Made by a program: the position numbers and the translations under genes
Notes under the pieces: generated by a model
The model's database searches: none
The model's input: the letters and a program-made list of their open reading frames with translations, nothing else
Told to the model about the DNA's origin: nothing
Source: Ktedonobacterales bacterium
GTDB lineage: Bacteria; Chloroflexota; Ktedonobacteria; Ktedonobacterales; JADMIN01
Assembly (NCBI GenBank): GCA_030167145.1
Contig: CP126532.1
Location: forward strand, 1,620,001 to 1,652,000
Reading direction: 5' to 3'
Length of the DNA stretch: 32,000 bases
Part shown: positions 29,632-30,534 of the stretch, one piece after another
How positions within the stretch are numbered: the stretch's first letter is position 1
Layout of the letters: each line of letters begins with the position of its first letter

Positions 29632-30534
29632 CTATCGTTCTTCGCCCGTTTCCGTATCAGCGGTAGGACCGTTCAACTGGGCGAAGAGGCCCAGGCGGTC
29701 TTGTTCTTCGATGTGTTGCCGCCGGGCTTCCTCGCGCCGAAGCTGCTGGATGCTCTTGGCGGGCGTGGCAAGCTGCTCAGGAGGCGGCACGCCCGCGTCT
29801 TCCATCGCCTTGCGGACGATATGACCCGCTTTGTGATGGGTGTGGTTGGCGTCGCTCTTGCCCTGGATGCCATCGCTGCGCAGCATTTCGCGGGCAAGCG
29901 CCGCGCGGAAGCCATTGGCGGCGGTTTCGGTGCTGCCCATGTAGTCGGCGATGTTCTGGTTGGGCTTCAGCCCCTTGCGCGCGGCGATGTCTTGCGCCGT
30001 CTCGCCATTGTAGAGGCCGCGATAGCCATGATCTTCGAAGACCGCGAAGTCGTCTGGCGTGATAACGCCCGCATCGCGCGCCGCCTTGAACAGTTCGCGA
30101 TGATAGCGTTTGAGTTTGTCGCGCTCCTCGATGCGCAGGCGTGCTTCCTCGCGGTCCTCGGCCAGTTCATCGCGGCGCGTGCGAACGGCGAAGTAGGTCT
30201 GCCCCAGGGCGACGATCTCTTTGGAGGGGTCGGCGTTCTGGACAATGAGATAGCAAGCGTAGCGCGATAGATGCACGTCATCTACCGCGCGTTGCGAGCC
30301 AGAGCCAAGTTGCACCATATGCACCATGTGGTGCATATGGTCTTCCACAGGTTGTCCGCTATTCTTACACGCCTCTTCCGCCTTCTTGATGACATCCGTG
30401 AATTTCTGCCAGCGGCTGTAATCGAGGAGTTTCGCTAGCTCGCGGGCGGACCAGAATTCGCCGTCGGCATCGGTGTGCTTGATGCGTTCGAAGGGCGAGA
30501 TGCGTCCGGTTGTGGTGGTTGGGTCGTCTGGCAT
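29632..30534 (-). CDS. dinD: DNA-damage-inducible protein D (DinD/RhuM-like) homolog
   Basis: ATG at 30534 preceded by AAGGTGAG (track start GTG at 30543). Collinear motif matches to E. coli DinD as I recall it. [27 protein letters not shown] matches PFEEIK...G.E.[46 protein letters not shown] matches [73 protein letters not shown] and [14 protein letters not shown] also match. Confidence 0.85.
   Translation of the reverse strand: [300 protein letters not shown]

Follow-up and report, generated by a model that had tools for sequence, protein, structure and literature searches.

The minus strand at the end of the 32,000-nucleotide stretch of Ktedonobacterales DNA analysed here (the window) carries four co-oriented open reading frames followed by secD and secF. 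The second of the four is a dinD-like gene that stands between the first and second genes of an SMC-type operon, which raises the question of whether a protein linked to DNA damage has become a working part of a DNA-loop-extruding complex or has only settled among its genes. An earlier note on this DNA had proposed that the DinD-like protein is a plausible new effector, sensor or regulator of an SMC system lacking its usual nuclease, and had added that a selfish insertion would explain the arrangement equally well. The features concerned are as follows.

30601 to 32000, minus strand: jetA-like first gene of the operon, of which the 3' two-thirds lie in the window; 693 aa in full, with the start 682 nt past the window end
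30535 to 30600, minus strand: gap of 66 nt from the jetA-like stop to the dinD ATG, containing the Shine-Dalgarno-like AAGGTGA; fold z-score -1.1
29632 to 30534, minus strand: dinD-like coding sequence, 300 aa plus stop, intact
30314 to 30341, no strand assigned: perfect palindrome within dinD, 13+13 nt around a 2-nt spacer; it codes for HMHHMVHM, part of a variable loop
29577 to 29631, minus strand: gap of 55 nt from the dinD stop to the jetB-like ATG; fold z-score +0.5
28737 to 29576, minus strand: jetB-like (putative KITE) gene, 279 aa, 57-84% identity across Ktedonobacterales
24499 to 28740, minus strand: jetC/mksB-like SMC ATPase gene, 1413 aa, with 4 nt shared between its start and the end of jetB

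The dinD open reading frame was listed on the minus strand as 29632 to 30534 or 30543, and the start at the ATG of 30534 is that of the JGI gene call and is also favoured by the Shine-Dalgarno-like motif 5 nt upstream (about 30540 to 30546). The product matches the NCBIfam equivalog model NF008573 ('DNA damage-inducible protein D') with 335.8 bits against a cut-off of 242, its residues 15-277 corresponding to profile positions 10-278 of 288, and aligns with E. coli K-12 DinD at 51% identity along 258 residues (E 8e-94), results that bear out the description of the gene as a clear DinD homolog. The DNA-binding-type N-terminal domain that had been expected was recovered as Pfam Bro-N (43.4 bits, cut-off 25.6; match at residues 22-111, domain at about 14-100), the sole Pfam match of the protein. 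In PADLOC, the product matches PDC-S13 (PDLC04919, 330.6 bits), a phage-defence candidate family on which nothing was found in the literature searched, as well as a model for Type I specificity subunits in which a DinD module is included. About 8000 close homologues of DinD were scored in one search. As far as can be judged from sequence, the window gene is a true DinD, collinear over its full length with E. coli DinD (PcsA; NF008573 / PRK11525), with which it shares the Bro-N N-domain and the same helical C-domain, whereas about 25 additional C-terminal residues are present in the window protein. The genomic settings also differ, in that E. coli dinD stands alone between yicC and yicG under LexA control, whereas the window dinD lies inside an SMC operon.

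The three genes that make up this operon are recognized to very different degrees. The SMC protein matches the PADLOC model JetC2 (PDLC00553) with 206 bits over residues 184-1362, together with AAA_29 and SbcC_Walker_B, and scores 143 bits against TIGR02680, far under the cut-off of 463. The jetB-like protein reaches only 18.9 bits against DUF2398 (with DUF4194 one of the two families of JetB KITE subunits), below the cut-off of 26.9, has no PADLOC or NCBIfam match, and retrieved nothing in a profile search of the PDB. The jetA-like protein, whose full length was taken from the 5.07-Mb source contig (locus L002), has a Pro-rich tail ending in RRxWPF and has no Pfam, PADLOC or PDB sequence match, JetA kleisins being defined by DUF3375 and DUF2397; only 161 homologues were retrieved, Ktedonobacterales throughout. 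A kleisin identity for this first gene was also sought by structure, and Foldseek searches with its AF2 model (pLDDT 72) gave only non-significant matches (E 0.08-0.3), which include E. coli JetABC (chain 9qxt_E, E 0.08) and MukF (3euh, E 0.11). The earlier naming of the operon therefore holds for the SMC gene, is sub-threshold for the KITE-like gene and has no family match behind it for the kleisin-like gene; the labels 'kleisin' and 'KITE' rest mainly on position.

No JetD/Toprim/MksG-type nuclease gene was found within 10 kb on either side of the operon, in agreement with the view that the usual nuclease is missing. At about 0.3 kb after jetC stands secD (324 nt by the window open reading frame, 345 nt by the JGI call), and jetB homologues with 57-84% identity were detected in 47 genomes of GTDB species, without exception MAGs of Ktedonobacterales type, many of which likewise continue into secDF. 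This conservation and the frequent secDF neighbourhood point to a vertically inherited core locus rather than a mobile Wadjet island, and on the sequence comparisons available the operon is best classed as a nuclease-less, Mks-like core locus of Ktedonobacterales. It resembles MksFEB / MukFEB and Wadjet (JetABCD) in its order of putative kleisin, putative KITE and SMC ATPase and in the JetC2 match, and it shares the absence of a nuclease with MksFEB; however, its JetA and JetB are unrecognised by the family models, no JetD/MksG is present, and it is a core locus beside secDF.

Within the window, dinD is on the same strand as both of its neighbours, with the jetA-like stop at 30601 and the jetB-like ATG at 29576, and the two short gaps that had been reported were confirmed by these coordinates. 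Consensus scans of both gaps revealed neither a sigma-70-type promoter nor an intrinsic terminator, as the earlier note had stated, and neither gap folds better than its shuffles; in addition, no Rfam family was found in 24000-32000. A LexA box (GAAC-N4-GTTC, at most one mismatch) was found neither near dinD nor upstream of the operon, the motif being a Cheo-type consensus that may not be the one used by Ktedonobacterales. No terminal inverted repeats, target-site duplications or flanking repeats surround the gene, and the intergenic sequences of the junction have diverged too far across relatives for the boundaries of an insertion to be placed.

The distribution of dinD at this junction was examined in homologous loci gathered from collections of genomes and metagenomes with the jetB-like protein as query, in which the operon proteins were mapped by tblastn and genes were called by a simple GC3-based ORF picker. 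For the frequency estimate, 57 loci extended far enough upstream; L050-L053 and L090-L101, having been reached from DinD, were left out of it. In 33 of the 57 loci, jetB comes straight after jetA, at a distance of 24-500 nt. DinD stands immediately upstream of jetB in three loci, jetA plus an unrelated insert of 1.2-3 kb precedes jetB in four, and unrelated genes lie upstream of jetB, with jetA not within reach, in the remaining 17; in one further arrangement (L010), DinD was found 3 kb upstream of jetB. Junction alignment showed a clean jetA-jetB junction in close relatives as well (L003, L007, L008, L009 and L017). In neighbour-joining trees, built on tblastn-anchored or MAFFT alignments, the DinD-bearing loci are confined to one sub-clade of the combined jetB and jetC tree, where 6 of 15 loci have DinD.

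Besides DinD, the occupants of the same junction include a PQQ beta-propeller membrane protein, which was seen at four or more loci, and elsewhere an RRXRR-HNH protein, a Clp_N protein or a glycosyltransferase-like gene. Given this range of occupants, the junction between jetA and jetB is a variable, permissive site. A role of DinD as a core effector in place of the missing nuclease is contradicted by the 33 clean junctions, close relatives included: these operons lack dinD and join their first two genes directly, the very outcome that the earlier note had named as refuting its idea. The caveat that the gene might be a selfish insertion is thus the better-supported half of the earlier interpretation as far as clean junctions in relatives are concerned, although the accompanying idea of a strain-specific accident is not, in view of at least eight lineages, two DinD clades and purifying selection.

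DinD was found in strand upstream of jetB in at least eight distinct lineages, at 24-55 nt from the jetB ATG in every locus whose DinD reading frame (for L004, the C-terminal remnant) has no internal stop, and at 141 nt in a pseudogene copy. One of these genes (P0123) belongs to a dinD-jetB-jetC unit without jetA upstream (L050), in which DinD is promoter-proximal, and the genes P0138, P0149 and P0154 show the arrangements jetA-dinD-jetB, jetA-ClpN-dinD-jetB and dinD-jetB-jetC. In the DinD tree, two separate DinD lineages occupy the position next to jetB, one comprising the window gene, L011, L050 and L010 (lineage 1) and the other L016, L004, L090, L091-94 and L095 (lineage 2). DinDs of the two lineages are 53-59% identical to one another, while the flanking jetB products are 78-85% identical to the window jetB (84-85% for lineage-2 loci). 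A single old insertion that later diverged into both lineages was considered and rejected, because the window protein is more similar to the unlinked DinDs P0126 (68%) and P0128 (64%) than to lineage 2, even though jetB in lineage-2 loci is as close or closer. In agreement with this, a clade of jetB-linked DinDs excluding unlinked ones appeared in none of 200 bootstraps; 196 of them recovered a monophyletic lineage 2.

Pairwise omega values of 0.10-0.25, both within and between the DinD lineages, indicate that the resident copies are under purifying selection. Signs of decay are also present. The DinD of L016 contains an in-frame stop (a pseudogene, or possibly an assembly error), and because L088 is identical to L016 the stop counts as one observation. 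In L004, a fusion of Bro-N with a DUF559/PD-(D/E)XK-like domain precedes a separate open reading frame that corresponds to the C-terminal half of DinD, which again may be an assembly error. Two lineages at the same position, in strand and with tight spacing, together with the L050 unit, exceed what a single neutral insertion would leave; selection for expressing dinD along with the SMC genes could be the reason.

DinD genes are also found away from SMC operons. The source genome itself encodes a solo DinD (P0160) with 59% identity (BLASTP) among housekeeping genes, and 7 kb from it, again with housekeeping neighbours, a distant Bro-N/PDC-S13 relative of about 21% identity that scores best on a different PDC-S13 model. 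In MAG GCA_035310125 the junction (L005) is without DinD and a DinD lies on another contig (L098). The unlinked P0126 adjoins an nSTAND1 NTPase and P0128 a DDE transposase. A 405-aa DinD with two Bro-N domains was found between the genes for the large and small subunits of ribonucleotide reductase (nrd), with gaps of 6 nt, the position of mobE (nrdA-nrdB) in T4-like phages. In tblastn searches, DinD matched 255 records of phages or satellites and 45 of plasmids; 41 of the phage records cover at least 80% of the DinD query, including Streptococcus satellite phages and Campylobacter phages. Among the plasmids, a Thiothrix plasmid has the order parA-parB-dinD-helicase, with parA-parB-dinD in strand, and a Zymomonas plasmid carries dinD in a toxin-antitoxin-rich region.

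Similar settings appear in published data. A dinD-domain gene between core genes of a Type I R-M locus is listed in published tables (PMC9881135), and dinD is part of the variable cargo of streptococcal phage-related islands (PMC10602874, PMC4129442). The dinD/RhuM-type genes of Type I R-M operons resemble the window gene in that they, too, interrupt in the same orientation a row of conserved genes for a DNA-tracking machine of several subunits, and they differ from it in their host operon, which in the window is SMC/Mks-like. From the R-M, plasmid, phage and island contexts, embedding in operons of DNA-tracking machines and in mobile elements is an established habit of the DinD family, of which the SMC context is a new instance; no earlier description of DinD inside an SMC operon was found in the literature searched.

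The protein was also approached through its predicted structure. The AF2 model of the window DinD (pLDDT 90) consists of a beta-hairpin and winged-helix-like Bro-N domain, a long helix of about 50 residues (106-154) and a helical-bundle C-domain. Sequence searches with DinD or the DinD profile retrieved no solved structure; in a Foldseek comparison with the PDB, the best six matches were all chains of Deinococcus DdrC (E 2.6e-5 to 9e-3), and the next match had E 0.33. The best DinD-DdrC match has a probability of 1.0; the DdrC matches span about 240 aligned columns, with TM-scores of only 0.26-0.47, and no sequence similarity between the two proteins was detectable. By this comparison, the predicted DinD fold appears to resemble Deinococcus radiodurans DdrC (PDB 7qvb, 7udi, 8u0g) in its beta-hairpin and wHTH-like N-domain, linker helix and helical bundle, and both proteins are DNA-damage-linked; the C-domain of DinD is longer, and lesion bridging is a property of DdrC. 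Induced by damage, DdrC binds nicks or breaks in pairs as a dimer, and it bridges and compacts DNA (PMC11347143); its describers considered it to be without known structural homologues. Nothing connecting DdrC with DinD was found in the literature searched. Viral matches of the DinD model were KilA-N, antirepressor and 'regulatory' proteins, and neither Pfam nor the high-confidence model revealed a nuclease domain or fold. As for known activities, E. coli DinD removes RecA from duplex DNA. PMC10602874 and PMC4129442, both citing Uranga et al. 2011, describe it as an inhibitor of RecA activity and strand exchange, and from the former comes its inhibition of RecA filaments on duplex DNA. Mutation of E. 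coli dinD has a single known effect, cold sensitivity that depends on recA (PMC2577331).

Taken together, DinD is probably an autonomous accessory cassette that occupies a permissive junction of a core Mks-like operon and is expressed by read-through, not a subunit of the SMC complex; this account is favoured here with moderate confidence. According to it, the operon (first gene, KITE-like gene and SMC gene, usually followed by secDF) is inherited vertically across Ktedonobacterales, normally with nothing between genes 1 and 2, and a DinD gene would have landed just upstream of jetB in one Ktedonobacterales sub-lineage. The gene would then have been kept in some descendants, lost in others and degraded in at least one, and may have been replaced, or acquired again, from the second DinD lineage. 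The short gaps and the lack of a terminator consensus suggest that dinD is transcribed by read-through together with jetB and jetC. Its product would act alone, as DinD proteins do elsewhere, probably as a DNA-binding dimer working on DNA that is damaged or undergoing recombination, a role proposed by analogy and from the structural model, and it would be neither a stoichiometric subunit nor an effector or nuclease substitute of the SMC complex.

Other explanations should be weighed against this cassette model. That DinD is a functionally coupled, though dispensable, accessory of the SMC complex, serving as a lesion or DNA-end sensor or as a RecA antagonist co-expressed with jetB and jetC so that loop extrusion and the handling of broken or foreign DNA go together, appears rather unlikely; it is a milder version of the sensor or regulator suggested in the earlier note, without the obligatory role. 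Such coupling would account for the position of both DinD lineages in strand 24-55 nt upstream of jetB, for the promoter-proximal DinD of the jetA-less unit in L050, for purifying selection on dinD and for the in-strand parA-parB-dinD order of the Thiothrix plasmid, and it would suit a protein whose model has a DdrC-like fold, given that DdrC bridges and compacts nicked or broken DNA (PMC11347143). However, most orthologous operons do without DinD, the gene was lost or degraded within the very sub-clade that has it, the solo DinD genes of the same genome lie away from any SMC gene, and unrelated genes are found at the same junction too. A more specific form of this thought, in which a nuclease-less Mks/Wadjet-like SMC complex has on two or more independent occasions taken up DinD, a DdrC-like sensor of nicks and breaks, as an accessory factor transcribed along with it, and in which DinD either couples loop extrusion to the recognition of ends and lesions or shields extruded DNA from RecA, must be regarded as improbable; if true, it would define a new module of SMC plus lesion sensor and would give the enigmatic DinD family a mechanism.

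Two further readings take the gene as an independent entity, and both are quite improbable. The behaviour of DinD recalls free-standing homing endonuclease genes such as T4 mobE, which share with it a sporadic, flank-incongruent occupation of a fixed site in conserved operons, and the gene might accordingly be a selfish, homing-type invader that settles between co-transcribed genes, is expressed from their transcription and spreads by recombination through the conserved flanks. Its patchy presence at one exact intergenic spot with a phylogeny incongruent with the flanks, the copies between the nrd subunit genes with 6-nt gaps and between Type I R-M core genes (PMC9881135), those beside a transposase and on phage satellites and plasmids, and the DUF559/PD-(D/E)XK-like fusion at the same spot in L004 would all fit this explanation. 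On the other hand, DinD differs from homing endonucleases in having no recognisable GIY-YIG, HNH, LAGLIDADG or PD-(D/E)XK nuclease domain, its structural neighbours being DdrC and KilA-N/antirepressor-type proteins; flanking repeats or target duplications are absent, and purifying selection over a long divergence argues for a function beneficial to the host. The last reading, in which DinD by itself defends against phages or plasmids and the jetA-jetB junction is a local hotspot of defence and accessory genes, draws on the strong PADLOC matches (both PDC-S13 and the Type I specificity-subunit model), the DinD that adjoins an nSTAND1 NTPase, and the presence of dinD in R-M loci and phage satellites. 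PDC-S13 is only a candidate label, however, while the other occupants of the junction are non-defence genes (PQQ propeller, Clp_N protein and glycosyltransferase-like gene) and the solo copies of the source genome are placed among housekeeping genes.

The locus is a new context for a known family with a known behaviour and no new kind of system: it adds an SMC/Mks-like operon to the contexts in which DinD accompanies DNA-tracking machines and mobile elements. For annotation, this means that DinD should not be presented here as a novel Wadjet effector. The upside of the locus is the recurrent linkage of DinD with jetB together with the resemblance between DinD and DdrC. The former offers a natural experiment, since closely related genomes with and without DinD at one junction, and two DinD lineages at one site, could separate a modulation of the SMC complex by DinD from mere passenger status. 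The structural resemblance to DdrC, a protein described as having no homologues, is a new lead, and so is the first gene of the conserved SMC operon, which is specific to the order Ktedonobacterales.

Two compositional properties of the gene may be added. The GC content of dinD is 0.56-0.65, compared with 0.65-0.75 in the jet genes, and its GC3 is 0.74 versus 0.80-0.84; other local genes span 0.65-0.87, so that composition was discarded as evidence of a recent transfer of dinD. The palindrome at 30314 to 30341 would form, as RNA, a hairpin of -22 kcal/mol (z -3.3), and none of 200 shuffled sequences folded equally well.

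The AlphaFold model of the DinD protein encoded between the jetA-like and jetB-like genes (window 29632-30534; m093032fd3297) was confident, and its best six PDB matches were all to DdrC, a DNA-damage-linked protein of Deinococcus radiodurans, with E-values from 2.6e-5 to 9e-3 (the next PDB match had an E-value of 0.33). As judged from the model, an arrangement of N-domain, linker helix and helical bundle appears to be common to both proteins. In published descriptions, DdrC is restricted to Deinococcus and has no structural homologues, and a DdrC-DinD connection was not found in the literature searched; the model suggests that DinD and DdrC may have a remote relationship that has not been described so far.

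Variant forms of DinD were found in other loci, and the window gene itself contains a perfect palindrome:

L100 6001-7218 and L101 1054-2271: DinD of 405 aa carrying a tandem pair of Bro-N domains, between ribonucleotide reductase subunit genes
L004 1-1181: fusion ORF of Bro-N and a DUF559/PD-(D/E)XK-like domain, then a separate ORF for the C-terminal half of DinD, at the jetB-upstream site
Window 30314-30341: palindrome of 13+13 nt with a 2-nt spacer, within the dinD coding sequence

The 405-aa form is flanked by the large and small subunit genes with gaps of 6 nt, the same kind of position that is occupied by free-standing homing endonuclease genes in T4-like phages. The fusion ORF, present in one MAG, stands in place of the DinD N-half upstream of jetB, and its DUF559/PD-(D/E)XK-like domain is methyl-directed restriction-like. 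The palindrome (ACCATATGCACCA ca TGGTGCATATGGT) encodes HMHHMVHM in a variable loop of DinD and forms a hairpin as RNA (-22 kcal/mol, z -3.3). The corresponding part of dinD in L011, another dinD-bearing jetB locus, lacks the palindrome.

The first operon gene, jetA-like, had no family match:

Window 30601-32000 (L002 6841-8922 on the source contig): jetA-like gene, 693 aa

Searches of Pfam, PADLOC and PDB returned no match for its product, which is order-specific (161 homologues, every one from Ktedonobacterales) and ends in a Pro/Ala-rich disordered tail of about 150 residues with a conserved terminal RRxWPF motif. It is a putative kleisin. In many Ktedonobacterales genomes, jetA was not detected within 2-10 kb upstream of jetB-jetC (L006, L012-L015, L041-L044, L049, L050, L055, L057 and L067), so the gene for the putative kleisin frequently either lies apart from the KITE and SMC genes or is missing. 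At the junction, a recurrent occupant is a PQQ beta-propeller membrane protein (L005, L010, L014, L034 and L057).

DinD was also observed in two further settings:

L052 1-1678 and 16506-16936: region of the solo DinD P0160, source genome, ~0.8 Mb from the window
L104 4093-10881: dinD on a Thiothrix subterranea plasmid, in strand with parA-parB

Besides P0160, the L052 stretch, which may be a decayed mobile-element region, carries an IS605 OrfB/TnpB-like gene and a more distant 313-aa Bro-N/PDC-S13 protein (PDC-S13 being a PADLOC phage-defence candidate model), whose gene adjoins a P22_AR_N antirepressor-type gene. On the plasmid, dinD immediately follows parA-parB and precedes a DEAD/DEAH helicase gene and a SWIM zinc-finger gene, which is a further example of DinD adjoining DNA-partition or DNA-tracking genes.
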